This document shows, in pieces, positions 5,716-60,553 of a DNA stretch of 64,000 nucleotides. Position numbers and translations under genes: made by a program. The notes beneath the pieces are model-generated. The model was given only the letters and a program-made list of their open reading frames with translations. It was not told where the DNA came from and searched no databases. Source of the stretch: Candidatus Curtissbacteria bacterium RIFOXYA1_FULL_41_14 (lineage in GTDB: Bacteria > Patescibacteriota > Microgenomatia > Curtissbacterales > GWA2-41-24). The stretch lies in contig MFCA01000022.1 of assembly GCA_001775095.1 (NCBI GenBank), positions 2,162 to 66,161 of the forward strand, read 5' to 3'. Numbering within the stretch: the first letter of the stretch is position 1; each line of letters starts with the position of its first letter.

Positions 5716-5752
5716 CTCTGAAAAGAGATCCTTCGTCGAGTCAGACTCGACT
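5716..5752. repeat. Mini hairpin repeat AGATCCTTCGTCGAGTCAGACTCGACTCAGGATGAC, palindrome GTCGAGTC-A-GACTCGAC. A second copy lies at 45611-45646.
   Basis: Two near-identical copies read directly. The same hairpin is nested inside the element at 28115-28188. Confidence 0.55.
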
Positions 5753-5765
5753 CAGGATGACAGGA

Positions 5766-6289: not shown

Positions 6290-6400
6290 GATAGTCTATT
6301 GAAAACTATTATTCTTCGAACAAAGTGAGAAGTCTCACAGTTCTCGCTCCGGAGAGTACCAGCCGGTACCCTCCTACGCTCGAACAATACAATAACGGTT
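6290..6400. mobile_element. MITE-like palindromic element copy A. Core GGAGAGTACC-N-GGTAC(C)CTCC flanked by inverted TTATTCTTCGAACAA / TTGTTCGAGCG arms.
   Basis: Four copies in this window (6290-6400, 24961-25150, 34981-35095, 38245-38350) are alignable by eye in both orientations. Confidence 0.6.
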
Positions 6401-16109: not shown

Positions 16110-16596
16110 TCTTTGAAATGAGAACCTCGGAAATTGCTTGGATACCTTTCCCTTGACCGAAAGGGGTTAGATTTTCGCCGGAGGTAAAAGTTATTCCTAC
16201 TTGTTCTGTTTTGATCTTCAAGAGACTGGCGATTTTTGCCTTTATTTTTTTGATAGTCTCAAGATCAAGACGCGGTTTTTTAGCCTCAACACAGATTGAC
16301 ACGTTCTCAACTTTATATTTATTTCCTTCAACTTGTTTGAGAATATGTTCAACGTATTTTGCGCTGTCTATTATTCCGTTTTGACACATTTTATCTGACC
16401 AGGTGGATAGTGAATCTCCACCAACTGCAGAACTTAGAGCATTACATAAACTGTGCAAAATCACGTCGGTGTCTGAATTTCCTGACAGGCCGTTGCTTTG
16501 ATTGACCTTGACTCCACCTAAAATTAGCGGCTTATTTCCGCCGGCCGGCGGATTTAAAAATGCATGAGAATCCTGGCCCAGTCCTATTCTGTACAT
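16102..16596 (-). CDS. ispF: 2-C-methyl-D-erythritol 2,4-cyclodiphosphate synthase
   Basis: MYRIGLGQDSHAF...SDTDVILHSLCNAL matches IspF metal and substrate motifs. Confidence 0.8.
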   Translation of the reverse strand: MYRIGLGQDSHAFLNPPAGGNKPLILGGVKVNQSNGLSGNSDTDVILHSLCNALSSAVGGDSLSTWSDKMCQNGIIDSAKYVEHILKQVEGNKYKVENVSICVEAKKPRLDLETIKKIKAKIASLLKIKTEQVGITFTSGENLTPFGQGKGIQAISEVLISKND

Positions 16597-16680
16597 AATG
16601 CAGTTTGTGTCATTCCGAACTTGTTTCGGAATCTAATAATCTAAGATTAATTAGATCCTGAAATAAATTCAGGATGACAA

Positions 16681-17391
16681 TTAGTGTTTCACTTTTGAAG
16701 TGCGAAGCTTACGCACAATTTGTTCTGCAATCAACAAGTCTTGCGGGAAAGTTATTTTGAAATTCTGAAGTGAACAGGGAACAATTCTCACTTTAACACC
16801 TATTCTTTCAAGAAGTTGTGCGTCGTCCGTTCCGACAAAGTTTTGACCAGCGGCTCTTGCATGCGCCTTCCATAAATTTTTGAATGTTGACACCTGAGGT
16901 GTTTGGGCATACCAACATTTTTCCCGCAAAGGGGTTTCGGCTACGAATTCATCTTTTCCGACGATTTTGACAGTGTCTTTTGCTGGATAAGCTAAAAGAC
17001 TCGCGCCCCATTTTTTGGCAGCTCCGTAGACCTTTCCAATTTCATCTTGAGTAACAAACGGATTAACAGCGTTATGGATTCCTACCAAATCGTTATTTTT
17101 CATTCTGGTTTTCAGAAGTTTCAAAACTTCGAAGGTCGAGTTTTGACGACTGTCTTTGGCATCAACAACATCTTTTACCTTTTTCAATTTATATTTGGCA
17201 AGGATTGTTTTGATTTTTTTTAGGTCTTCTTTTCTTGCTGAGATAACGATATTATCAATGGTCTTACTTTTCTCAAATGGCTTGAGTGTCCAGTAGAGAA
17301 GAGGAAATCTGTTGAGTCCGGCAAAAATTTTATTGAATTTTAAGTTTAACCTTTGCCCTTTACCTCCGGCAACAACAATTAACCAATTCAT
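16681..17391 (-). CDS. ispD: 2-C-methyl-D-erythritol 4-phosphate cytidylyltransferase
   Basis: LIVVAGGKGQRLN nucleotidyltransferase motif. First gene of the operon. Confidence 0.8.
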   Translation of the reverse strand: MNWLIVVAGGKGQRLNLKFNKIFAGLNRFPLLYWTLKPFEKSKTIDNIVISARKEDLKKIKTILAKYKLKKVKDVVDAKDSRQNSTFEVLKLLKTRMKNNDLVGIHNAVNPFVTQDEIGKVYGAAKKWGASLLAYPAKDTVKIVGKDEFVAETPLREKCWYAQTPQVSTFKNLWKAHARAAGQNFVGTDDAQLLERIGVKVRIVPCSLQNFKITFPQDLLIAEQIVRKLRTSKVKH

Positions 17392-17457
17392 CTAAAAAGT
17401 AAGGTCAAGTTTATCATAAGTCTTGCCAGTGGGACCAGTTTAGTCCTATATTGTTCT

Positions 17458-19062: not shown

Positions 19063-20148
19063 TTGTTTGGAATGAAAGTGGTACAGATAAGAAAATACGG
19101 AGGGAATGAAGTTTTGGAGGTTAGTGATATACCAAAATCAAAACCCGGTAAAAATCAGGTATTGGTTGTGGTACATGCGGCAAGCGTTAACCCCTTTGAT
19201 TTGGCTGTCCGCTCAGGAGGAATGAGAAGTGTCTCATCCTTACAATTACCGTTTACTCTGGGCGGCGATTTTGCCGGAGTTGTTTTAGAAACTGGTGAAG
19301 ATGTAGTTGATTTTAAAATTGGTGATGAAGTTTACGGCAGCGCAATTGTATTTGGCAGTGGTTCCGGAGCTTTTGCCCAAGAGGTTAGTGTGAACATCGC
19401 AAATTGCGCTTTAAAGCCTAAAGGGGTAAATATGCAAGAGGCAGCCGCGCTGCCGCTTGTCGGATCAAGCGCTGTGCAGGCGCTTGAGGAACATATCAAA
19501 TTAAAAAATAATCAAAAGATATTGATCCATGGCGGCGCAGGCGGAATCGGCCATATTGCGATCCAGCTTGCCAAATCGAAAGGCGCGTACGTTGCCGCAA
19601 CAGTAGGGGACAAAGATAGGGAATTTGTCGAAAGGCTTGGCGCGGATGAGGTGATCGACTATAAACTTCCGAGGGCTAAGAGCCCTCGGTCTTGTTCTTT
19701 AAGTTTATATGAGCGAGCAGATGACTCAAATACTCGGAAGTATGTATTCTCTCGCATTCAGCCGCGGACTGATAGTCCACGGTATTCTGCGAGCGAATAT
19801 AAAAATCAGAAATTCGAAGATATCTTATCAGATTTTGATGCAGTGTATGATACTGTCGGAGGCGATGTCACAGAAAGGTCTTTTAGAGTTTTGAAAAAGG
19901 GCGGAATACTTGTTTCTATGAAAGGACAGCCTGATGAGAAGCTAGCTCAAAAATACCAGGTGTTTGCTATCGGACAATTCACAAAAATTAACGCAGAGCA
20001 CTTGAAGCGGCTTTCAGAACTGGTCGATGCAGACGTTGTCAAAGTTCATGTCGACAAGATTTTTACACTTGATGCGATAAAAGATGCTTTCGAATATCAA
20101 GAGATCGGCCATCCCCAAGGAAAGGTTGTTGTTAAAATTGGAAATTAA
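19063..20148 (+). CDS. Zn-independent MDR-family NADPH:quinone oxidoreductase, carrying a ~45-aa in-frame insertion encoded by a repeat element
   Basis: MKVVQIRKYGGNEVLEV...VLVVVHAASVNPFD and a GxGxxG-type GGAGGIGHIAIQ. The insertion lies between VIDYKL and FEDILSDFDAVYDTVGG. Confidence 0.7.
   Translation: MFGMKVVQIRKYGGNEVLEVSDIPKSKPGKNQVLVVVHAASVNPFDLAVRSGGMRSVSSLQLPFTLGGDFAGVVLETGEDVVDFKIGDEVYGSAIVFGSGSGAFAQEVSVNIANCALKPKGVNMQEAAALPLVGSSAVQALEEHIKLKNNQKILIHGGAGGIGHIAIQLAKSKGAYVAATVGDKDREFVERLGADEVIDYKLPRAKSPRSCSLSLYERADDSNTRKYVFSRIQPRTDSPRYSASEYKNQKFEDILSDFDAVYDTVGGDVTERSFRVLKKGGILVSMKGQPDEKLAQKYQVFAIGQFTKINAEHLKRLSELVDADVVKVHVDKIFTLDAIKDAFEYQEIGHPQGKVVVKIGN
19664..19798. mobile_element. 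~135-bp palindrome-rich repeat lying in-frame inside the quinone-oxidoreductase gene. The reverse-complement copy is at 58243-58378.
   Basis: RC alignment with 58243-58378 is about 85% identical by eye. Includes the CCGAGGGCT-AAG-AGCCCTCGG and CCGYGGACT-RAT-AGTCCACGG hairpins. Confidence 0.65.
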
Positions 20149-21306: not shown

Positions 21307-21321
21307 AAGGGGTTGAAACCT

Positions 21322-21396
21322 ATATTGTTCGAGCCCTTCGTCGAAGCTCAGGGCGAGAACTGTCAGACTTCTCACTTTGTTCGAAGAAGAATAAGG
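21322..21396. mobile_element. MITE-like element variant with the same TTGTTCGAGC...TTGTTCGAAGAA arms as the other copies but a CCCTTCGTCGAAGCTCAGGGCGAG core
   Basis: Arms are shared with the copies at 34981-35095 and 24961-25150. The core belongs to the CTTCG...CTCAGG motif family. Confidence 0.5.
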
Positions 21397-21413
21397 TTAT
21401 CAACGGACTAAAA

Positions 21414-24960: not shown

Positions 24961-25150
24961 TTAGCTTTGAGCTTATTAACCCTTATTGTTCGAGCCCCTC
25001 GTTGAAACTCAGGACGAGAACAACATGCTTCGCATATTGTTCGAGCACAGGAGAGTACCATCCGGTACTCTCCGTAGCGAGAACTTTCTGACTTCTCACT
25101 TTGTCGAGTCTAACTCGACTTTGTTCGAAGAATAACAAGGTTTTCAACAA
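24961..25150. mobile_element. Composite, nested MITE-like element: the palindromic GGAGAGTACC core plus a CCCCTCGTTGAAACTCAGGACGAG module and a GTCGAGTCTAACTCGAC hairpin module
   Basis: Contains the arm motifs twice (TTATTGTTCGAGC at about 24983 and 25037), with different cores between them. Confidence 0.5.
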
Positions 25151-27671: not shown

Positions 27672-28118
27672 ATGCGCTACGATTTAATGGTTGCTGTTGG
27701 TATCAAGGATGCGGACTCACTTGCCGGCAAACTTGAGAAATTTATTAAAGATGCTGCGGCGCAAGAGGTAAAAGTTGAGAAGCTGGGCAAAAAGACCTTA
27801 GCTTATCCTATTGCCAAGCAGCTAGAGGCCGAGTATTTCCTGTTTAATTTCGAGGCCCCGGCAGAGGCAATTTCTGCAATTACTCAAAACCTAAGACTTG
27901 AGCGAGAGACAATATTGAGGTATCTTTTAACAAAGGTAACAAAAGTAACAAAAGGAACAAGGGGTACAAAGGGAACAAAAGAGTTAATAGAATCAGAGGG
28001 TGAGAAAACAAAAGAAACAGGGAAAGTTGTGGTAAAGACGGTAGTAAAGGCAGGTACAAAGGTAACGAAAGGAACAAAGGGTACAAAAGGAACAAAAGTG
28101 AAAGGAAAGAAAAGTTGA
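27672..28118 (+). CDS. rpsF: 30S ribosomal protein S6 with a lysine-rich low-complexity C-terminal extension
   Basis: MRYDLMVAVGIKDAD...KTLAYPIAKQLEAEYFLFNFEA is an S6 core. The tail is KVTKGTKGTKGTK. Confidence 0.8.
   Translation: MRYDLMVAVGIKDADSLAGKLEKFIKDAAAQEVKVEKLGKKTLAYPIAKQLEAEYFLFNFEAPAEAISAITQNLRLERETILRYLLTKVTKVTKGTRGTKGTKELIESEGEKTKETGKVVVKTVVKAGTKVTKGTKGTKGTKVKGKKS
27934..28100 (+). repeat. Two blocks of tandem 9-nt repeats (GGTAACAAA / AGGAACAAA / GGGTACAAA) inside rpsF, encoding (V/G)TKG repeats
   Basis: Read directly. The repeats are multiples of 3 and in-frame. Confidence 0.55.
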
Positions 28119-28200: not shown

Positions 28201-28764
28201 ATGGCAAGTAGAGCATCGTTGAACAAAGTATTATTAATTGGAAATCTGACAAGAGATCCGGAGTTGAGATATACGCCTTCAGGCGCGGCGGTTTGTTCTT
28301 TCGGGCTGGCTACAAATAGAGTTTACGTTGCTTCTGACGGTACTAAAAAAGAGGAAGCGGAATTTATCAGGATCGTTTCCTGGAATAAACTGGCCGAGCT
28401 TTGTTCGCAGCTTCTTTCAAAAGGCAGGAAAGTTTATGTTGAAGGAAGATTGCAGACGAGAAGCTGGGAGACCCCCGATGGAATAACTAAGCAGACAACG
28501 GAAGTAGTTATTGATGACATGAGAATTCTGGATTCCCGCAGAAGTTTCGAGGAAGCCAGCACGGGGGAAAATATCCCTTATATAGAAAATACATCTGCAA
28601 GCCAGACAAAAGTCAAAGAGCCATCTTCCTTCGCTAAAGCTACGGAGGACAAGGAGAGTCTAAGGGTCAAAGAGTCAAAGGGGACAAAAGGGTCAAAAGA
28701 GCCAAAGGATTCAAATGGAGGCGGAGATGAGGATAAAATAGATTTAGACGATTTGCCATTTTAA
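28201..28764 (+). CDS. ssb: Single-stranded DNA-binding protein
   Basis: OB-fold N-terminus LNKVLLIGNLTRDPELRYTPSGAAVCSF...W. Acidic tail ending in DDLPF. Confidence 0.8.
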   Translation: MASRASLNKVLLIGNLTRDPELRYTPSGAAVCSFGLATNRVYVASDGTKKEEAEFIRIVSWNKLAELCSQLLSKGRKVYVEGRLQTRSWETPDGITKQTTEVVIDDMRILDSRRSFEEASTGENIPYIENTSASQTKVKEPSSFAKATEDKESLRVKESKGTKGSKEPKDSNGGGDEDKIDLDDLPF

Positions 28765-31403: not shown

Positions 31404-31458
31404 ATCCCAGTGCACACCCCCGGGGTGCGCGTCGGCAATCGTCTATTGCTCACCCCGG
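31404..31458. repeat. Double palindrome CACACCCCCGGGGTGCG-N22-CTCACCCCGGGGGTGAGC lying between the convergent genes htrA and dedA. Likely a bidirectional terminator and a member of a mobile repeat family whose paralogue sits inside prfA.
   Basis: Palindromes read directly. Preceded by the hairpin TTCCGAATAAAATTCGGAA and (AATTTCA)x4. Confidence 0.6.
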
Positions 31459-31472
31459 GGGTGAGCTATGAA

Positions 31473-33599: not shown

Positions 33600-34517
33600 T
33601 TATTCATGTAGGGCATCAATTATTTTATCCAATTTGCCATTCATTACTTCTTCCAGGTTGTGCCATGACTTATTAATTCTATGGTCTGTAATGCGATTCT
33701 GGGGATAATTATAAGTGCGGATTTTTTCGGAGCGGTCGCCCGTGCCCAGTTGGGCTGAGCGTTGAGAACTGAGTTGAGAGGATTGCTTTTCTTCTTCAAG
33801 TTGATAAATTTTTGAGCGCAAGATTCCCATAGCGATTTCGCGGTTTTGGCCTTGTGAACGTTCGGTTTGAGCCTTAACAACAATTCCGGTCGGTTTGTGT
33901 TTAATTCTGACGGCGGTTGAAACTTTATTAACATTTTGACCGCCGTGGCCGCCGGAACGGAAAGCTTCAAATTCAATATCGGCAGGATCAATAATAACTT
34001 GAGTCGGAGGTACTTCCGGCAAAATCGCAACTGTAGCAGTTGAGGTATGAATACGGCCGGATGACTCGGTGACAGGAACTCTTTGAACCCGGTGGACACC
34101 TGATTCATGTTGAAGTTTTTCAAAAACGTTTTTGCCGGAAATTTTAACAATTACAGTCTTGATATTTCCAAGTCCGCCTTCGGTGCAGTCCAATTCTTCA
34201 AACTGCCATCTGTTGTTGACGGCAAACTTTTGATACATTCGCAGAAGATCGGCTGCGAAAAGCCCGGCTTCATCGCCGCCGGCAGCGGAGCGGATTTCTA
34301 GAATGACAGACGAGTTTGTGGGCCCACCCCCGGGGTGCGATCCGGGTGACGTCAAGACTTCACCCCGGGGGTGAGTCAGGGCAATTTTTTCTTCTTCAAG
34401 CTTCTCTATTTCTTCCTGCGCGAGCTCGGCCATAGAAGGGTCAGCTGACACTAATTCTTGAGCTTCTTTAATCTTCTTTTCAATATTTTCAATTTGTTGT
34501 TTTTGATAATCGGTCAT
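33600..34517 (-). CDS. prfA: Peptide chain release factor 1 with an in-frame palindromic-element insertion in the N-terminal domain
   Basis: GGQ motif [14 protein letters not shown]1-type PVT tripeptide in [16 protein letters not shown]. The extra segment [21 protein letters not shown] is encoded by the element. Confidence 0.85.
34318..34384. mobile_element. Double-palindrome element (CACCCCCGGGGTG ... CACCCCGGGGGTG) inserted in-frame within prfA. Paralogue of 31404-31458.
   Basis: Same two palindromes and a similar spacer as the intergenic copy. The ORF remains open through it. Confidence 0.65.
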
Positions 34518-34980: not shown

Positions 34981-35095
34981 TGTTAAAAACCCTTATTGTT
35001 CGAGCACAGGAGAGTACCGTCCGGTACTCTCCGCAGCGAGAACTCAAACTTCTCACGTTGTTCGAAGAATAATAGTTTTCAATAGACTATCGATG
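34981..35095. mobile_element. MITE-like palindromic element copy C
   Basis: CCCTTATTGTTCGAGCACAGGAGAGTACCGTCCGGTACTCTCCGCAGCGAGAAC...TTCTCACGTTGTTCGAAGAATAA, a near-perfect RC of copy D. Confidence 0.65.
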
Positions 35096-35977
35096 TAAAG
35101 GGTGGGCGCGGCGTTTTTGTTCAACTAAAAGAACTGCTGTTGCAATCAAAAGTCCGCCGATTAGAAGTTGAGGTGTTAATTTCTCTCCAAGCAGAATGAT
35201 AGACAGGATAGTTCCGGAAACCGGATCCAGATAGAAGAAAAAAGCTGCCTGACCAGCCGGCATGAGCGAAAGTCCCTTTTGCCAAAACCAGTAGGCGATA
35301 AGAGAGGCAAAGATAATTCCGTACACAATACCAGCAATGCCCATTAAGTTGATTTGCGAGGTCCAATTTGGGTTCGAGATATATTCCCAAATAAATAAAG
35401 GCATAAGTGTGATGCTGCCGATTGCCATTAAATAAAAAGTGAGAACATCGGCGCTGTAAGAAGTTAAGAGTTTTTTGGCAATAATCTCGTGAACTACCCA
35501 GGAAAAGGTCGCAATTAGAAGAAGCATGTTTCCGATTGTTTGGGTCAAAGTAAAGCTGCCCAAGGGTTTGCCAATAATAATAATTATGCCAACCAGGGCA
35601 ATAATTGATGAGCTGATAAGGGAAAAGGACAGTTTTTCTCTAAGGTAAAAATGGGCTGCCAGTATAGTTAAAATCGGTACGGAAGCTACCAAAAACGAAG
35701 CAGTGATTGCTTCGGTTAATTTGAGCCCGAGAAAGAAAAAGGTCAGATTAAAAGAAACTCCTGTTAACGCTGCCCATATAAACATAAAAATGTCCTTCTT
35801 TTTTATTTCCAATTTTTTGTGAACAAAGATTAAAAGGATCAGGGCGGCTATAGAGATTCTGATAAAAACCAGTGAGAAAACCGGGACTTGGGTTAAGGTT
35901 AGTTTCATAATCGGGGCGGTCGCGCCCCAGATGATGGCGGCGGAAGCGGTAAATAAGAAGGCAGAGTTGAGCTTCAA
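35087..35977 (-). CDS. EamA/DMT-family transporter (TTG start)
   Basis: Ten TM segments and two EamA-like halves. Confidence 0.65.
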   Translation of the reverse strand: MKLNSAFLFTASAAIIWGATAPIMKLTLTQVPVFSLVFIRISIAALILLIFVHKKLEIKKKDIFMFIWAALTGVSFNLTFFFLGLKLTEAITASFLVASVPILTILAAHFYLREKLSFSLISSSIIALVGIIIIIGKPLGSFTLTQTIGNMLLLIATFSWVVHEIIAKKLLTSYSADVLTFYLMAIGSITLMPLFIWEYISNPNWTSQINLMGIAGIVYGIIFASLIAYWFWQKGLSLMPAGQAAFFFYLDPVSGTILSIILLGEKLTPQLLIGGLLIATAVLLVEQKRRAHPLHR

Positions 35978-36234
35978 TTTAATTTCTAATTTCTAATTTC
36001 TAAATCCTAAACAAATCAAAATGACCAAAATTCAAAACAATTTTAAGAGAAATTTATCTTTTTTGATCATTTGATATTTGAATTTTGAAATTGTTTAGAG
36101 TTTAGAATTTAGAGTTTAGAATTTTTATTAGTCATTAGGTTAATATCAGCATGAGCTTCGCTCATCTGATATATCAGTAAACTTCATTAGATTTTTATAT
36201 TAATTACAATAATTGAAGTTTAGCTGATATTAGG
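35978..36234. repeat. ~260-bp AT-rich intergenic element, copy 1, in reverse orientation and abutting the eamA start
   Basis: RC aligns by eye with 59764-60028. Contains the CTAAACTCTAAATTCTAAAC and TTAGGATTTAGAAATTAGAAATT blocks and a CTGATATATCAG-hairpin-CTGATAT module. Confidence 0.65.
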
Positions 36235-37134
36235 TCAATTTTGTATCGCTTCAATAAGTCGGTCAAGGCCGAAAGAAAAGCCGACAGCAGGAATTTGCCT
36301 TTTAGAAAACATGCCAATTAAGTTATCGTATCTGCCGCCTGAGCCAATGGATAAATTGCCATAAGACGGGATTTTTAGTTCAAAAATCGCTCCTGTGTAA
36401 TAATCAAGACCGCGGGCTAAAAGGGGGTCAAAAATATATTCCCGACTATCGATTCCCCCCTCATCAAGAATTTTAAAAAGTGATTTAAGATTATCAGTCA
36501 GCGGTTTATTTGCCATACTCTGGAGTATGGCAGTTGCTTTCGCTTTTGAAAGCCCCTTTTGCGTTAATTCGTTGACAACTCCTTCTTCGCCGATCTTTTC
36601 CAGTTTATCAAGAGCGATGACGACTTCCTTGTCAACTCCTTCAAAATTTTTGCGGTCGTTAATTTTAATTTGCGAGCTTTTAAGGCCAACTGCTTTGACA
36701 GCTTTAAGTGCGGCGGCGATAATTTTTGCGTCTTCTTCTAAACTGTCTGATCCGACAGTGTCAAAGTCCAGTTGAGTGAATTCGCGATAGCGGCCTTTTT
36801 GGGGATTTTCGCCGCGGAAAACCTGGCCGATTTGATACCGGCGAAAGGGCAGTGGGGGATTATTAGTTGCGACATAACGGGCGACTGGAACGGTCAGATC
36901 GTAGCGCAGAGCCAAGTCTCTGCCGCCGCGATCTTTAAACTCATAGATTAGTCTTTCCTCCTCACCATATTTACCTTTTAGAGTCTCGGCAAATTCGATA
37001 GTTGGTGTTTCGATTGGTGCAAAACCGAACTCTTCCAGTACATCGACGATCTGATTAATAACAGCTCGTCTTTTTTTGGCTAGATCCGGTTTAATATCGC
37101 GGAAGCCTTTTGGTGTCGGCGGGGCTTTTTGCAT
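36235..37134 (-). CDS. hisS: Histidyl-tRNA-synthetase-like catalytic core (class II motifs 1-3) lacking a C-terminal anticodon-binding domain
   Basis: RYDLTVPVARYVA, FRRYQIGQVFRGENPQKGRYREFTQ (motif 2) and GGRYDNLIGMF...AVGFSFGLDRL (motif 3). The ORF ends 5 aa after motif 3. Confidence 0.6.
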   Translation of the reverse strand: MQKAPPTPKGFRDIKPDLAKKRRAVINQIVDVLEEFGFAPIETPTIEFAETLKGKYGEEERLIYEFKDRGGRDLALRYDLTVPVARYVATNNPPLPFRRYQIGQVFRGENPQKGRYREFTQLDFDTVGSDSLEEDAKIIAAALKAVKAVGLKSSQIKINDRKNFEGVDKEVVIALDKLEKIGEEGVVNELTQKGLSKAKATAILQSMANKPLTDNLKSLFKILDEGGIDSREYIFDPLLARGLDYYTGAIFELKIPSYGNLSIGSGGRYDNLIGMFSKRQIPAVGFSFGLDRLIEAIQN

Positions 37135-38134: not shown

Positions 38135-38445
38135 AATTTCTAATTGCCTTAATTACTAAAAACCCTAAACTCTAAATTCTAAACTCCTGCCTGCCGGCAG
38201 GCAGGCTAAACAATTTCAAAATACAAAACTCAAATGATCAAAAAAGAGATAGTCTATTGAAATCCTTATTCTTCGAACAACGTGAGAAGTTTGAGTTCTC
38301 GCTGCGGAGAGTACCGTCCGGTACTCTCCTGCGCTCGAACAATATGTTTATCATCCTGTTTTGAATTTTAGATTTACCTCATTTGGATTTATTTAGGATT
38401 TAGAAATTAGAAATTAGAATTTTACTCTTTAGGTCTTTTAGCTTA
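38135..38445. repeat. AT-rich element copy 2, interrupted by a nested MITE-like copy D (38245-38350) and an extra CCTGCCTGCCGGCAGGCAGG palindrome. Lies between divergent gene starts.
   Basis: Both flanks align with copy 3. The MITE-like copy D (38245-38350) sits between them. Confidence 0.6.
38245..38350. mobile_element. MITE-like palindromic element copy D, nested inside the AT-rich element
   Basis: Reverse complement of copy C. Confidence 0.65.
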
Positions 38446-45603: not shown

Positions 45604-45610
45604 TGTAGAC

Positions 45611-45646
45611 AGATCCTTCGTCGAGTTGGACTCGACTCAGGATGAC
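45611..45646. repeat. Mini hairpin repeat, second copy (AGATCCTTCGTCGAGTTGGACTCGACTCAGGATGAC). Its ATG is the first in-frame start of the downstream ORF.
   Basis: Near-identical to 5716-5752. Confidence 0.55.
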
Positions 45647-55932: not shown

Positions 55933-57219
55933 ATGAAGCTTTACGAGTTTGAAGGACATCGGATTCTTGCAAAAGTCGGGATAGAAAGCCCTTTTTTTGT
56001 TGCTTGTTCGAATTTAGACGAGGTAAAACAGGCTCGCAAACGTCTTAAATTTCCAATGGTTGCCAAAGTGCAAGTACTTTCCGGCAGGCGGGGCAAGTCT
56101 GGCGGAGTAAAATTTCTCTCAAACGAGAAACAACTTTTAACCTTTGCAAAAGAAATGTTTGGGAACAAATTTAATGGGGAGGACGTCAGATTTATAAGTT
56201 TTTCTAAAAAAATCGAGATCGAAAAAGAACTCTACCTTTCGATTGCCTACGATACTATCAAAAAAAATCCCTTTTTTCTTTTTTGTGAAGAGGGTGGCGT
56301 TGATATCGAAGAGGTAAAAAAGAGGAGTCCTGAAAAGATTGTTAGAGTAGATATTGATTCGTTGACCGGACCGACGAAAAAGAATCTGGAAGCGCTGTTT
56401 AGGCATGAACTCGTCGATTTTGCAACCCGTCTTTGGGATGCTTTTTGGCGATTTGATTGCCGTATGGTGGAGATTAACCCGTTAGCACTTGTCAGAGAAT
56501 CTGGATCTCACCCCCGGATTGAAGTCAAGACGAAATCTGGGGTGCACCTCGGGGATGGGCATAGTTATGTCGCTATTGATGCCAAAATCATCCTTGACGA
56601 TGCAGGTTTGGCAAGACATCGCGATTTGGATGTTTTGCCAAAGGGCGCAGCGAGTGCGGTACCGACAGAGAGAGAACTGGCAGCAAGAAAGGTTGATGAA
56701 GGTGACTGGCGGGGAACCGCCGGCTCTATTTTTATTGAGCTTGACGGTGACATCGCTGTTTTAGCGTCCGGCGGCGGAGCCAGTCTTTTGACAATGGATG
56801 CGCTGACTTCAGCCGGCGGTAAAGGGGCAAACTATACTGAATATTCTGGTAATCCACCGGCAGAAAAAGTTGAAAAATTAACAAAAATTACTTTGGATAG
56901 AGAAAATCTCAGCGGGTGTTTAGTTTGTGGAGCAGTAGCCAACTTTACAGACATTTATGAAACCTTAAAAGGTTTTACTGAGGGTTTAAGGCAGGTCAGA
57001 CCAAAGCCAAGTTATCCAATCGTCATCCGACGGGGAGGTCCGGGACAGGAGAAGATATACGAAGTAATTGGCAAGATTGCCCAAAAAGAAGATTACGACA
57101 TTCATCTTTTTGGGCCTGAGACACCGATATCAGTTGCGTGTCAAAAGATGGTAGAACTATCTAACGACTATAAAATTCGAAATCCGAAGTACGAAAGTAA
57201 AATCGATTCGTATGATTAG
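55933..57219 (+). CDS. Succinyl-CoA-synthetase-beta-like ATP-grasp subunit (SucC/CcsA/AclB family)
   Basis: Aligns by eye along the full length with SucC (KVQVLSGRRGKSGGVKF, VEINPLAL, LASGGGASLLTMDAL). Confidence 0.7.
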   Translation: MKLYEFEGHRILAKVGIESPFFVACSNLDEVKQARKRLKFPMVAKVQVLSGRRGKSGGVKFLSNEKQLLTFAKEMFGNKFNGEDVRFISFSKKIEIEKELYLSIAYDTIKKNPFFLFCEEGGVDIEEVKKRSPEKIVRVDIDSLTGPTKKNLEALFRHELVDFATRLWDAFWRFDCRMVEINPLALVRESGSHPRIEVKTKSGVHLGDGHSYVAIDAKIILDDAGLARHRDLDVLPKGAASAVPTERELAARKVDEGDWRGTAGSIFIELDGDIAVLASGGGASLLTMDALTSAGGKGANYTEYSGNPPAEKVEKLTKITLDRENLSGCLVCGAVANFTDIYETLKGFTEGLRQVRPKPSYPIVIRRGGPGQEKIYEVIGKIAQKEDYDIHLFGPETPISVACQKMVELSNDYKIRNPKYESKIDSYD

Positions 57220-57285
57220 TATCCATTAGTATATTGGTATCAATGCTAATATACGAATTTATGCTAATTATACAAATATGAGTAT

Positions 57286-58176
57286 ATGGCCATTTTAGTC
57301 AATAGAGATACGCGAGTTTTAATTCAAGGAGTTACAGGTAGATCAGGAACGCAAGTTACGGGCGAGCTATTGGACTATGGTATGAGAGTACTTGCAGGAG
57401 TAACTCCGGGTAAGGGCGGCCAAGAGATAGAGGCGGTGCCGGTTTTTAATTCAATCAAAGAAGCGGTTGAACAAATCGGACCAGTTGACGTCTCGATGGT
57501 TTATGTTCCGCCACTTCTTGCTTATGAAGCAGCGATTGAAGCGATTGAAGCGCAAATTCCCTTAATCCACATTTTCGCCGAGAAAATTCCGATTTTTGAT
57601 ACTTGCCGAATTCTTTCGATGGCCGCTAAAAAAAACGTCCGGGTTTTAGGACCGGCTTCAGTCGGAGCAATTTCTCCAGGCGAAGGTAAGATTGGTTCAA
57701 TCGGCGGACCCAAGCCGGAGGCAGTTTTTTCAAAAGGACCGGTCGGTGTAGTTTCCAGGTCTGGCGGGATGTGTGCCGAGCTTGGTCTTTTAATTTCAAA
57801 TGCCGGTCTTGGGCAGTCAACGGTTGTTGGTATCGGCGGGGATTTGCTTATTGGAATGGACTTATCCGATGTGCTTTTGAATTTTGAGGCAGATGCGCAA
57901 ACAAAAGTTGTGGTGGCTTTTGGTGAAGTTGGGGGTAGTCAAGAGATAGAAGCTAGTAGACTTTTGAAAAATGGCCAGGTAACTAAACCTGTAATTGTTT
58001 TTCTGGCAGGAACTTTTGCTGAAAGTTTGCCAAAAGATACCAGTCTTGGTCATGCCGGAGCTATTGTCGGTCTGGAAACAACAATGAAGGAAAAGATCAA
58101 GACGCTTAAAGATTGCGGTGCAGTTGTTGCCGAAAAATTTGAAGACATACCATTACTAATTAAAAAGTCTCTATAA
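57286..58176 (+). CDS. Succinyl-CoA-synthetase-alpha-like subunit (SucD/CcsB family) with the phosphohistidine loop
   Basis: VLIQGVTGRSGT, GVTPGKGG, SRSGGM and the active His in SLGHAGAIVG. Confidence 0.75.
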   Translation: MAILVNRDTRVLIQGVTGRSGTQVTGELLDYGMRVLAGVTPGKGGQEIEAVPVFNSIKEAVEQIGPVDVSMVYVPPLLAYEAAIEAIEAQIPLIHIFAEKIPIFDTCRILSMAAKKNVRVLGPASVGAISPGEGKIGSIGGPKPEAVFSKGPVGVVSRSGGMCAELGLLISNAGLGQSTVVGIGGDLLIGMDLSDVLLNFEADAQTKVVVAFGEVGGSQEIEASRLLKNGQVTKPVIVFLAGTFAESLPKDTSLGHAGAIVGLETTMKEKIKTLKDCGAVVAEKFEDIPLLIKKSL

Positions 58177-58242
58177 ACATCCTTATAAATATCTGAAAGC
58201 CCTGTTTAGCATTATTGATTTTGATTTTGATGATTATTTATA

Positions 58243-58378
58243 TTCGCTCGCAGAACACCGTGGACTATTAGTCCACGGATGAGGAGCGAGAGAATACATA
58301 CTTCCGAGGAGCGGGATGTTCTGCTCGCTCATGTAAACTTAAAGAACAATACCGAGGGCTCTTAGCCCTCGGAAGTTT
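58243..58378. mobile_element. Intergenic copy of the ~135-bp palindrome-rich repeat that is in-frame in the oxidoreductase gene
   Basis: RC alignment to 19664-19798. Contains perfect hairpins CCGTGGACTA/TTAGTCCACGG and CCGAGGGCTCTTAGCCCTCGG. Confidence 0.65.
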
Positions 58379-58415
58379 ATAATATTTGTATCCGTGAATT
58401 AATTCATAGATACAA

Positions 58416-58853
58416 ATGGCGCAAATTTCTAAAAGACAATTAGGCAGGAAACTTGAGTTGAAAGTTTACGATTCTTTTTGGAGAGTAATAGCAAATATTA
58501 AAAATAGAGAAGAGGTCTCTGACTTTTTTTCCGACTGTTTGACTCGAACCGAGCGGGTTTATTTGGCAAAAAGGATGGCTATCGCGGTACTTTTGTCAAA
58601 AGGTTATGATTACCGATCTATAAGTAATATGTTAAAAGTTTCCACAGGGACGGTGGGAAGAGTGGCAAGTAAAATAGAAGAGAAAGGCTGGAAACTTTTT
58701 GTCAGGAAACTCGAGGGTTTAGAAGATTGGGATAAGTTTTGGCATGATATGGAGAAACTTTTGATGAGGTCTACAGGTGCAGGGAGAAGGATGTTTTTAA
58801 GCGAGGAAGAAATCGAAGGTATCGTCAGGAAGCATAAAAGATTGTCTTCATGA
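58416..58853 (+). CDS. YerC/YecD (TrpR-like) DNA-binding protein
   Basis: LTRTERVYLAKRMAIAVLLSKGYDYRSISNMLKVSTGTVGRV resembles the Trp-repressor-like YerC fold. Confidence 0.55.
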   Translation: MAQISKRQLGRKLELKVYDSFWRVIANIKNREEVSDFFSDCLTRTERVYLAKRMAIAVLLSKGYDYRSISNMLKVSTGTVGRVASKIEEKGWKLFVRKLEGLEDWDKFWHDMEKLLMRSTGAGRRMFLSEEEIEGIVRKHKRLSS

Positions 58854-59022
58854 ATTAATTCATGAAGACAAGGTTCTTTTTGATTTTAAAAATGTAGTTT
58901 TAAGTTTCATGACTGAAAGAGAAGATCTCGATTCTGATTTTGAACTCACCAGGGGAGTTTGCTTTTCAGGGCGAAGATGGGCGAAGCTAGAATGATTAGC
59001 TGAATTTAGGTATACTTAAACC

Positions 59023-59763
59023 GTGATGCCAAAGCCGTACCGGACTTCAATAACCACCCATGCTGATGGTTCACCTCATGTATACGGTTATGATCTGACA
59101 AAGCTTGCCGGGAATACCTCTTTTGCCAAGGCTATCTACCTTATTCTTAAAGGTCAAATGCCGGATAAGGCGAGCGAGAAGATGTTTGAGGCGATGTTAA
59201 CGATCGCTATCGATCACGGTGTTGAACCTCCATCAGTTGTTGCTGCAAGAAACGTTTCTTCGGGCGGTAGTCCAATTCAGGCGGCGGTTGCGGCCGGGGT
59301 ACTGGCGCTTGGGGAATTTCACGGAGGAGCAATTGAGAAGGCGATGGAAAATTTTAAAAAATATCAGGGTGTTGGGGTTAAGATAATGGTTGATGATTTT
59401 AACAAAAATGGCGAGCGTATTTCCGGTTTCGGCCATCGACTATATGCTGACGATCCCAGAACGCAAAGGCTTTTAGAAATTGCCAAGGAACTTGGTTTTT
59501 TCGGTAAATATGTCAAATTTGCTCTTGAAGTTGAAGCAGAAATTTCCAAAGAGTCAAAAAAATTACCTCTTAATATCGACGGATGTTTTTCAGTACTGCT
59601 CTTGGAAATGGGATTCAATCCCAAGGTCGCCAACGGTATTTTTATAATTGCCAGAACACCGGGGTTGGTGGCTCACGTAGTTGAGGAAACCTTGCGTGAG
59701 AAACCGGCAAGGCGGTTAACCGAAAACGATGTGGAATATGACGGACCAAGACCGAGACGGTAA
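59023..59763 (+). CDS. Truncated citrate-synthase-family protein (citryl-CoA-lyase-like, C-terminal catalytic part only)
   Basis: Conserved citrate-synthase catalytic contexts HGGA, GFGHRLY...DPR and IARTPGLVAHVVEE. It lacks the ~150-aa N-terminal region of full citrate synthases. Confidence 0.65.
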   Translation: MMPKPYRTSITTHADGSPHVYGYDLTKLAGNTSFAKAIYLILKGQMPDKASEKMFEAMLTIAIDHGVEPPSVVAARNVSSGGSPIQAAVAAGVLALGEFHGGAIEKAMENFKKYQGVGVKIMVDDFNKNGERISGFGHRLYADDPRTQRLLEIAKELGFFGKYVKFALEVEAEISKESKKLPLNIDGCFSVLLLEMGFNPKVANGIFIIARTPGLVAHVVEETLREKPARRLTENDVEYDGPRPRR

Positions 59764-60028
59764 ATTGATCTAATATCAGCTAAACTTCAATTATTATAAT
59801 TAATATAAAAATCTAATGAAGTTTACTGATATATCAGATTCGCCGAAGGCGAAGGCTGATATTAACCTAATGACTTAACAAAATCCTAAACTCTAAATTC
59901 TAAACTCTAAACAATATCAAAATTCAAATGTTCCAAAAAATAATTAAACTTAAAATTGTTTTGAATTTTGTATTTTGATTATTTGGATTTATTTAGGATT
60001 TAGGATTTAGAAATTAGAAATTTCAAAT
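59764..60028. repeat. ~260-bp AT-rich intergenic element, copy 3, filling the whole spacer between the citrate-synthase-like gene's stop and the ruvC ATG
   Basis: Aligns with the RC of 35978-36234 and with the flanks of 38135-38445. Confidence 0.65.
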
Positions 60029-60553
60029 ATGATTATTTTTGGCATTGATCCTGGGACAGCTACAACTGGCTATGGGGTTATAAAGAAAGTTAAAAGCTCT
60101 CTCGAATTGGTAGATTACGGGTGCATAAGTACATGTAAAGATGACCCAATGCCCTTGAGGTTATATAGTATCCAAAAATCTTTAAAGAGCTTACTCAGAC
60201 AGTTTAATCCTGATTGTGTTGTTGTAGAGCAATTGTTCTTTGGTGCGAATTCCCGTACTGCAATGACTGTTGGACAAGCAAGGGGAGTAGTGCTCTCGTC
60301 CGTTGCGTCCTATAGGCTTCCCATATTTGAATACCAGGGATTACATGTTAAACATACTTTAACTGGAAATGGCAGGGCAGACAAAAAAGAAATCCAAAAA
60401 TCGGTGATGAAATACTTGAGAAAAAGAACATTGAGAAAACCGACAAACGGATATCTTGACGACGCAGCTGATGCCTTAGCCGTGGCAATTTGTCATGCGA
60501 TTAAGATTAAAGGTAACAAAAGTGTCAAAGCTGACAAAAGTGTCAAAGGCTAG
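60029..60553 (+). CDS. ruvC: Holliday junction resolvase RuvC
   Basis: MIIFGIDPGTATTGYGVI... catalytic DxG/E pattern. Length 174 aa. Confidence 0.8.
   Translation: MIIFGIDPGTATTGYGVIKKVKSSLELVDYGCISTCKDDPMPLRLYSIQKSLKSLLRQFNPDCVVVEQLFFGANSRTAMTVGQARGVVLSSVASYRLPIFEYQGLHVKHTLTGNGRADKKEIQKSVMKYLRKRTLRKPTNGYLDDAADALAVAICHAIKIKGNKSVKADKSVKG

Follow-up and report, generated by a model that had tools for sequence, protein, structure and literature searches.

The locus examined here raises the question of how a gene coding for an enzyme can come to hold, within its open reading frame (ORF), a copy of a hairpin-rich repeat that also occurs between genes. The window, i.e., the whole stretch of 64,000 nucleotides (nt) that we analyzed from contig MFCA01000022.1 of Candidatus Curtissbacteria bacterium RIFOXYA1_FULL_41_14, has one such repeat in the gene for an MDR-family NADPH:quinone-oxidoreductase-like protein and another in an intergenic region. 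A reading made earlier from the letters of the window (here, the sequence-only reading) had pointed out both copies and put their identity at about 85%; we find both, with slightly wider limits (Table 1; ATAAA at both ends is counted in) and an identity of 88% across 144/145 nt. This match (blastn E = 1.7e-37 within the 64-kb window) is far beyond chance, and neither sensitive blastn nor a covariance-model search recovered a third copy in the window. Taking the findings detailed below together, we propose, with a probability of roughly 0.8, that the repeat is a mobile DNA element of ~140 bp encoding no protein, which inserted at an ATAAA of the oxidoreductase gene and belongs to a family spread in Curtissbacteria and related Microgenomates, a group of ultra-small groundwater bacteria.

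Filled and empty alleles of the oxidoreductase gene

The ORF continues across the element without a stop, as VIDYK-LPRAKSPRSCSLSLYERADDSNTRKYVFSRIQPRTDSPRYSASEYK-NQKFEDIL, the net insert being 138 bp or 46 stop-free codons; the sequence-only reading had correctly called the insert in frame and stop free, while its figures of ~135 bp and 45 residues fall a little short. This copy lies in the only orientation and phase in which it is free of stops, each of the other five frames having them, and the gene thereby stays open with 46 residues added. The Pfam domains PF08240, PF00107 and PF13602 were found on homologues of the oxidoreductase, and its closest solved structure is the quinone oxidoreductase 3tqh (E = 4.5e-48), to which it aligns in two stretches that skip residues 198 to 250.

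That the segment is an insertion follows from the existence of an empty allele with identical flanks and from the homologues that lack it. The empty allele (locus L001), which comes from public metagenomes, reads GACTATAAA followed by AATCAG (junction sequence GACTATAAAAATCAG) and is 100% identical to the window in the 2304 nt upstream, with 99.8% identity in the 1020 nt downstream. It has a single ATAAA, whereas the filled allele has ATAAA, here as part of TATAAA, on both sides of the element. Further, the segment is absent from all of the ~50 further aligned homologues, which are 57 to 67% identical. The sequence-only reading had named such an alignment as the check on its claim, and a segment shared with distant homologues as the outcome that would speak against it; no homologue shares it. 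Since these homologues uniformly lack the segment, the empty state is the ancestral one in the oxidoreductase. The insertion is a recent one, with flanks 99.8 to 100% identical. A second pair of empty and filled sites, from two species (L053/L047), likewise goes from one ATAAA to two at the same target. The idea of a repeated hairpin-rich element inserted in frame is supported by the empty allele, the homologues, the 54 copies described below and a second gene (L016) that holds a copy in this same frame.

Among database proteins, the nearest ones form two clusters, one of 344 to 358 amino acids with the segment (18 members, many of them deposited from Candidatus Curtissbacteria metagenome-assembled genomes [MAGs]) and one of 298 to 312 amino acids without it (5 members), which are otherwise identical. 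With the window included, the filled allele is present in six independent assemblies and the empty one in another six, and filled and empty alleles that are otherwise identical coexist in the same natural (groundwater) populations. In a 5.6-kb comparison, both flanking haplotypes (18631 T/G, 19551 C/T, 19619 G/A) were found with and without the insert, metagenome contigs being consensus sequences that can mix strains; the presence and absence of the insert on both haplotypes fits recombination or repeated seamless loss or gain.

Table 1. Features of the oxidoreductase locus and of the second copy, in positions of the window
Feature	Position	Strand	Remarks
Host gene, MDR-family NADPH:quinone-oxidoreductase-like	19072..20148	+	ORF, 358 codons from the ATG at 19072; homologues ~310-313
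Intragenic element copy	19661..19803	+	Net 138 bp, written 19666-19803 or equivalently 19661-19798; covariance-model score 152.7 bits
Left ATAAA, target pentanucleotide	19661..19665	+	Made by the Tyr-Lys codons TAT AAA; one in the empty allele, one on each side in the filled allele
5' domain	19662..19707	+	Stem TAAACTT/AAGTTTA (19662-19668 with 19701-19707) around hairpin 1; RNAalifold consensus, same stem in the DNA fold
Hairpin 1, CCGAGGGCT-AAG-AGCCCTCGG	19669..19689	+	Perfect 9-bp stem; T-rich tail TCTTGTTCTT
3' domain	19745..19799	+	Outer stem TATTCTCTCGCA/TGCGAGCGAATA (19745-19756 with 19788-19799) around hairpin 2; seen in minimum-free-energy folds
Hairpin 2, CCGCGGACT-GAT-AGTCCACGG	19762..19782	+	9-bp stem with one C.A mismatch
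Right ATAAA	19799..19803	+	Duplicated target or the element's own 3' motif
Intergenic copy	58237..58380	-	Antisense to the flanking + strand genes; covariance-model score 148.2 bits

The element family and its ends

An exact scan with the left hairpin yielded 23 metagenome loci, and a degenerate right-end pattern yielded 45 loci in species-representative genomes, with up to six exact matches per genome (at least six in the MAG MFBL01). The left-hairpin pattern had 0 matches in the species-representative genomes because hairpin 1 covaries (see below), and there were 0 pattern matches in viral contigs. From these loci, an end-anchored parse collected 54 distinct copies of 50 to 220 nt. The host taxa are nearly all Candidatus Curtissbacteria, Roizmanbacteria or Microgenomates; some loci lie in MAGs titled “uncultured Gammaproteobacteria,” one of which is a 915-kb chromosome, and we suspect that this title is wrong.

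All 54 distinct copies have ATAAA at both ends. They begin with ATAAAC-TTCC and finish with CGA(A/T)T-ATAAA (right-end sequence CGAATATAAA; a right-end/left-end junction would read GAATATAAACTTCCGAGG), their flanks being otherwise unrelated. No copy has terminal inverted repeats (TIRs): comparison of the left terminus CTTCCGAGG with the reverse-complemented right terminus ATTCGCTCG gives agreement at 4/9 positions. Copies are seen in either orientation; some are truncated or nested, some lie inside genes, and others stand in tandem and then have one ATAAA in common (L030, L039). The family is also modular: 50-nt mini forms at three independent loci (L010 2000-2049, L055 420-469 and L067 1575-1624) join a single hairpin to the leftmost 8 nt and the rightmost 23 nt of the element, the hairpin of L010 being a hybrid of hairpins 1 and 2, and enlarged copies (L030, L035, L036, L039, L040, L042, L043, L054, L063, L066 and L069) carry one or two extra small hairpin modules, often inserted at AAGTTT^TACATGAG. 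In a further subfamily, the left end is shared and the body is different.

In 9 to 14 of the 54 copies, the left end directly abuts the start codon of a gene read divergently (...CCTCGGAAGTTT-ATG, or GGAAGTTT-ATG), examples being L059 3373-3529 (rplM), L037, L043, L053, L054 and the L010 mini form, whereas only ~2 to 4% of intergenic TTTAT sites adjoin a start codon. In the one empty orthologue seen of such a site, the ATG directly follows a terminator T-run, an arrangement that may explain part of the enrichment. The genes with flush copies apparently have no Shine-Dalgarno sequence before or after insertion. Another side observation concerns loci where mixed flanks surround the same element copy (L008/L022, L009, L012 and L023): at L009 the 11 nt beside the left end, and at L023 the 22 nt beside the right end, are those of another locus's flank. 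These could have arisen by gene conversion between copies, by transduction of flanking DNA or as assembly chimeras.

Two folded domains maintained by compensatory change

Both window copies fold far better than shuffled sequences on either strand (z = -5.8 to -7.6 as RNA and -5.7 to -7.2 as DNA), with the same fold in DNA as in RNA, and the intragenic insert reaches -56 kcal/mol as RNA. The two strong hairpins of the sequence-only reading are thereby recovered, with a perfect stem in hairpin 1 and a nearly perfect one in hairpin 2. A covariance model was built on 38 copies, and the realignment of 68 matches provided 65 distinct rows. Standard pairs fill 95.4% of the pair cells, versus 33 to 41% with the partners slid by 1 to 3 columns, and compensatory changes occur in 22/37 pairs; 0/500 shuffles reach the observed values.

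Helix 1 (stem TAAACTT/AAGTTTA), which uses four bases of the target pentamer, is 93.8% paired over the 65 distinct rows, and within it hairpin 1 covaries in the family (the pair 16/70, for instance, is GC in 32, AU in 11 and CG in 10 rows). The 3' domain has in the family a two-part stem (TATTCGC...TCGCA / TGCGA-GCGAATA) around hairpin 2; of its outer helices, helix 3 is 98% and helix 4 is 93% paired, and 8/12 of their pairs show compensatory changes, as do 7/9 pairs of helix 5 (hairpin 2). The sequence of hairpin 2 is swapped wholesale between copies, although every replacement is again a GC-rich hairpin. The distance to the left boundary is 3 nt for hairpin 1, and hairpin 2 is separated by 21 nt from the right end and by 16 nt from the right ATAAA. 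These data show two folded domains, each built around a GC-rich hairpin near one end and maintained by compensatory substitutions. An alternative pairing of ACTTCCGAGG with CCTCGGAAGT was also considered as a helix; it is not kept by compensatory change and was taken as a sequence repeat.

Among wobble cells, those that pair in the sense strand only (GU/UG) number 47 and those that pair in the antisense strand only (AC/CA) number 37. Because wobble pairs favor neither strand, what is constrained looks to be Watson-Crick pairing in DNA, or in each of the two strands, and not one functional RNA. A scan of the window at the Rfam gathering thresholds returned only a tRNA, and three element-bearing loci gave no Rfam match to the element at E ≤ 1. 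The sequence-only reading had further ascribed a degraded hairpin in the intragenic copy to a relaxation of structure under the demands of coding. This part is not supported: the departure is limited to one C.A mismatch, equivalent to a G.T wobble when the other strand is read, and similar or worse mismatches occur in intergenic copies, for instance L043, L046, L062 and L066, and in L019, which may or may not be intergenic.

Consequences for the proteins

Long ORFs are spanned by 2/54 copies, those of the oxidoreductase and of an inositol-monophosphatase-family gene (L016); a possible third (L019) runs off the end of the available sequence. At L016, a 141-bp copy adds 47 residues (KLPRAKSPRYCS...PRTDSPRYSASEYK) immediately ahead of the motif WVIDPIDGT, at a point that falls between residues 73 and 85 in bovine IMPase (2bji). 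Both genic copies have the same orientation and phase (xAT AAA CTT CCG). Of 15 copies that were translated, only 6 have the frame used in the genes open and a length that is a multiple of 3, and in the intergenic copy of the window a length difference of 1 nt closes this frame. There is no sign that the element evolved toward coding. The survival of read-through copies only is therefore enough to explain the same-frame pattern: selection would have eliminated genic insertions that are antisense or out of frame, and the element itself would not be built for coding.

In an AlphaFold2 model of the oxidoreductase (52 aligned homologues; mean predicted local distance difference test [pLDDT] score, 85), residues 201 to 242 have a pLDDT of ~30 and no secondary structure, and the rest is mostly above 90. 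The modeled loop lies between the strand 192-195 (VIDY) and the helix 247-250, and the model superposes on quinone oxidoreductases (Foldseek TM, 0.82 to 3tqh). We judge that the extra peptide is probably translated and tolerated as a disordered surface loop after the VIDY strand of the Rossmann domain. The duplicated TATAAA places Tyr-Lys on both sides of the loop; this Tyr would lie, as in related enzymes, near the pocket for the 2'-phosphate of NADPH. A profile of the element-encoded peptide had 0 matches among 5.8 billion proteins and also missed the known filled allele, so this negative carries no information.

A separate observation concerns the same loop in a 67%-identical homologue of the oxidoreductase (L072 2058-2115; P0033, GCA_000402395.1), which has a different insertion of 17 to 18 residues after DYK. 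This insertion contains the 14-nt direct repeat TATAAGCA(A/G)AGCTT and is unrelated to the element; as far as the alignment goes, it shows the loop after DYK to be permissive.

Proposed mode of movement and rival explanations

The best reading of the family, by analogy, would be one of nonautonomous mobile elements behaving like the Rickettsia palindromic elements (RPE). The conserved structure would serve transposition at the DNA level, and some enzyme would move the element in trans, its most plausible form during the move being single-stranded DNA, as with the PATEs derived from IS200/IS605 insertion sequences. ATAAA would then act both as the transposon-adjacent motif (TAM) and as the element's own 3' motif (TEM), with the internal GTTTA as a possible guide. 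The likeness to IS200/IS605 rests on the lack of TIRs, the hairpin near each end, the fixed pentamer, the seamless empty site and the orientation bias; we put forward a single-strand mechanism of this type as a tentative model. With respect to orientation, the sense strand of the element lies on the locally C-rich strand, as judged by local GC skew, in 26 copies versus 9 (p = 0.006), a bias confounded with gene direction, and the right end faces gene ends in 30 versus 13. The two window copies are oppositely oriented on one skew arm.

Enzymes that might move the element were sought in ~550 kb, made up of the window and the loci. With approximate IS200, IS608 and RAYT protein sequences as queries, tblastn found nothing below E = 0.6 there; a long element sharing both ends was not found among the window and loci, and Pfam searches with 10 unassigned ORFs of the window gave no transposase. 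A weak IS608-like candidate, the ORF at 816-1517, is a methyltransferase according to Pfam.

Several points weigh against the proposed reading. No transposase of any kind was found in the ~550 kb, and the orientation bias loses force through the confounding just mentioned. Because the pentamer is always identical, a 5-bp target duplication made by a DDE enzyme is indistinguishable from a TAM/TEM pair. The spacing of hairpin 1, only 3 nt from the left boundary, is unlike that in IS608, and the free variation of the hairpin 2 sequence is awkward for sequence-specific recognition by one protein. On the side of the gene, hairpin 1 with its T-rich tail TCTTGTTCTT matches the intrinsic-terminator consensus on the sense strand inside the gene (a pattern match only), and the filled allele, whose translation and enzyme activity are putative, may be slightly harmful to its host or already decaying into a pseudogene.

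Regarding the nature of the element, it could be an ordinary miniature inverted-repeat transposable element (MITE) from a DDE-type insertion sequence, in which a 5-bp staggered cut duplicates ATAAA and the hairpins are incidental. Such an origin would account for the ATAAA on both sides of every copy and its single occurrence in two empty sites, for the internal inverted repeat ACTTCCGAGG...CCTCGGAAGT in the left half, and for the size, the copy number and the absence of an ORF. We nevertheless regard it as rather unlikely, as the two ends do not form an inverted repeat, compensatory change and not sequence preserves the stems, 50-nt single-hairpin derivatives occur at three separate loci, and DDE elements do not usually show a fixed duplication of one 5-bp sequence such as that in 54/54 copies here. 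Another candidate is a structured RNA or regulatory module that has been domesticated (a terminator, an RNA-stability element or a 5' leader), with the genic copy a stray; conserved structure with covariation, the terminator-like match, the biased orientation relative to flanking genes and the excess of copies ending exactly at start codons speak for it. It is improbable given that wobble pairs show no strand preference, that Rfam has no match, that copies of either orientation are seen and that some are tandem, nested, truncated or genic, that their presence differs between near-identical strains and that the favored orientation places the terminator-like strand antisense to transcription. 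Least of all can the segment be a native lineage-specific loop of the enzyme, with the intergenic copy as a gene fragment: the open frame speaks for this and nothing more, whereas an empty allele with identical flanks exists, more than 50 copies lie in unrelated noncoding contexts in many species, and the segment is in no homologue. An intein and an intron were discarded along with the native loop on grounds of size, the lack of an Rfam match and the empty allele.

As for the fate of the gene, the insertion might have killed or crippled it, the open frame being luck and the filled allele a young, drifting pseudogene. The polymorphism is recent (flanks 99.8 to 100% identical), the coding sequence now includes a terminator-like hairpin with a T-rich tail in an insert that folds strongly as RNA, the insert adjoins the DYK motif of the cofactor domain, the filled alleles have nonsynonymous variants (V32A, L71S, K148Q and V38F), and ~7% of random genic insertions would be open by chance (1/2 for orientation, 1/3 for phase and 6/15 for an open copy). 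We still consider this outcome unlikely: the filled allele is the commoner one (18 versus 5 cluster members, and dozens of contigs), the gene is intact and the insert invariant and open in all full-length filled members, a second gene carries a same-frame copy, and the fold outside the loop is modeled with high confidence. It has also been entertained that the insert is skipped from AAA to AAA by the ribosome, or through an RNA-level event, so that the filled allele would yield the native enzyme. Bypassing of this sort has analogues in gene 60 of phage T4 and in the mitochondrial byp elements, and the thought behind it is that TAT AAA stands on both sides and that a strong hairpin starts 4 nt after the first AAA. 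However, both genic copies are stop-free multiples of three, which bypassing does not need, and there is no stop after the take-off codon; by this comparison, skipping would be very improbable.

Other repeats, neighboring genes and assembly artifacts in the window

The intergenic copy is placed between the stop of the ORF 57286-58176 and a TrpR-like gene at 58416-58853 (Pfam TrpR match). This TrpR-family gene is flanked by the 30-nt palindromes TTGTATCCGTGAATTAATTCATAGATACAA and TTGTCTTCATGAATTAATTCATGAAGACAA (58386-58415 and 58842-58871), the former sitting between the element copy and the gene start; they look like candidate operator sites for autoregulation. Around it lies a cluster at 55933-59763 with an ATP-grasp-like ORF (55933-57219) and a CoA-ligase-alpha-like ORF (57286-58176, assigned by eye only) and an ORF at 59023-59763 in which Pfam finds the citrate-synthase C-terminal domain only. 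In its gene content, the cluster resembles a split ATP-citrate-lyase or citryl-CoA arrangement, here in a genome of the candidate phyla radiation (CPR).

The window also contains other repeat families. A second small structured one, of ~85 to 95 nt (TATTGTTCGAGC-[variable GC hairpin]-GCGAGAAC...ACTTCTCAC..TTGTTCGAAGAATAA), occurs at 6290-6390, 21317-21404, 24978-25148 (apparently more than one unit), 34994-35091 and 38266-38360, i.e., at no fewer than five intergenic sites, in both orientations and with swapped hairpin modules. Hairpin repeats of a family CACCCCCGGGGTG...CACCCCGGGGGTGAG are found at 31412-31465, 34322-34375 and 56507-56560, and those of a family AGATCCTTCGTCGAGTCAGACTCGACTCAGGATGAC at 5719-5761 and 45604-45646. 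The hairpin GTCGAGTCAGACTCGAC of the last family is hairpin 2 in several copies of the element studied here (L010, L021 and L029 among them), which suggests an exchange of hairpin modules between repeat families. Further, an inverted duplication of ~260 nt (88 to 97% identity) with short repeats of the TTTAGAA/TTTAGGA type inside is present at 35981-36241, between the minus-strand ORFs 35087-35977 and 36235-37134, and at 59762-60028, directly upstream of a RuvC-like ORF at 60029. Runs of a repeat with a 9-nt period (ACAAAGGTA-like) lie at 27921-28114, in the 3' part of the ORF 27672-28118, where they give a repetitive Lys/Gly/Thr-rich C-terminal tail, and at 28675-28715, inside the ORF 28201-28764.

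One assembly (L002; GCA_000994225.1, LBYX01000023.1; P0003) has a 129-bp in-frame deletion flush with the element, which was considered as transposon mediated and set aside as a probable assembly artifact because two further deletions, of ~108 to 136 bp, cut away the beginnings of ispF and ispD on this contig. Compared with the window and other assemblies, it lacks 16491-16626, 17295-17401 and 19533-19661, and with them the 5' parts of both isp genes and the oxidoreductase's GxGxxG region; these gaps are probably local misassemblies in the public record. Two early assemblies (P0127 and P0133) are chimeric at the element. The family also marks sites of faulty metagenome assembly in these organisms.

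Comparison with known systems

REP/BIME sequences are palindromes of 20 to 40 nt with a conserved 5' GTAG, which occur in pairs near a RAYT (TnpA-REP) gene. Like them, the present element is hairpin based and free of TIRs, a trans-acting HUH enzyme is plausible for it, and its 50-nt mini forms resemble single REPs. It differs in having no 5' GTAG, in its units of ~140 nt with two different domains and in the lack of a RAYT match in the ~550 kb. PATEs, which are nonautonomous IS200/IS605 derivatives, have no TIRs, subterminal hairpins on the same strand and a TAM/TEM motif (PMC10055086). The element shares with them the absence of TIRs, a hairpin near each end on the same strand, insertion beside a fixed motif of 4 to 5 nt that also ends the element, and an orientation bias, here confounded with gene direction; the seamless empty site is compatible with scarless excision, although the empty state is ancestral here. 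In contrast to PATEs, its left hairpin is only 3 nt from the boundary, the sequence of hairpin 2 is not conserved, it consists of two larger stem-enclosed domains, its target may be duplicated, and a Y1 TnpA with matching ends was not found in the ~550 kb. With MITEs and intergenic repeats such as Correia, ERIC, BOX and RUP (PMC10969869), it has in common its small size, multiple copies, structure, modular variants, nested copies and occasional in-frame genic copies; those repeats have TIRs and duplications of the parent insertion sequence, such as TA, whereas neither recognizable TIRs nor a known parent is seen here.

Palindromic repeats lying in frame within genes are established for the RPE (Ogata et al. 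2000, summarized in PMC10969869) and also for ERIC, BOX and some cyanobacterial MITEs (PMC10969869). Full-text searches of the literature gave no description of MITE-like elements in Patescibacteria or the CPR; the present family is apparently undescribed, though the phenomenon of intragenic palindromic repeats is already known from Rickettsia. The parallels to RPE are close: both are palindrome-rich repeats of ~100 to 150 bp without an ORF of their own, found between genes and in frame in unrelated metabolic genes, where the added peptide sits at a position compatible with the fold, and both live in bacteria with small genomes and have no known transposase. They are parallels of behavior. The hosts here are Microgenomates of the CPR and those of RPE Alphaproteobacteria, and given the different phylum, homology to the RPE families is unlikely. 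Only 2, perhaps 3, of the 54 copies here lie in genes, as against almost half of those in three of the ten RPE families (PMC10969869); the present family further has a documented strict ATAAA target and a segregating empty allele. We define the family by its strict ATAAA target, its lack of TIRs and its covariation-supported architecture of two hairpin domains. It extends the phenomenon of selfish DNA inside protein genes from Rickettsia to the CPR, another lineage with tiny genomes, and its natural pair of filled and empty alleles makes translation, tolerance and seamless excision directly testable.

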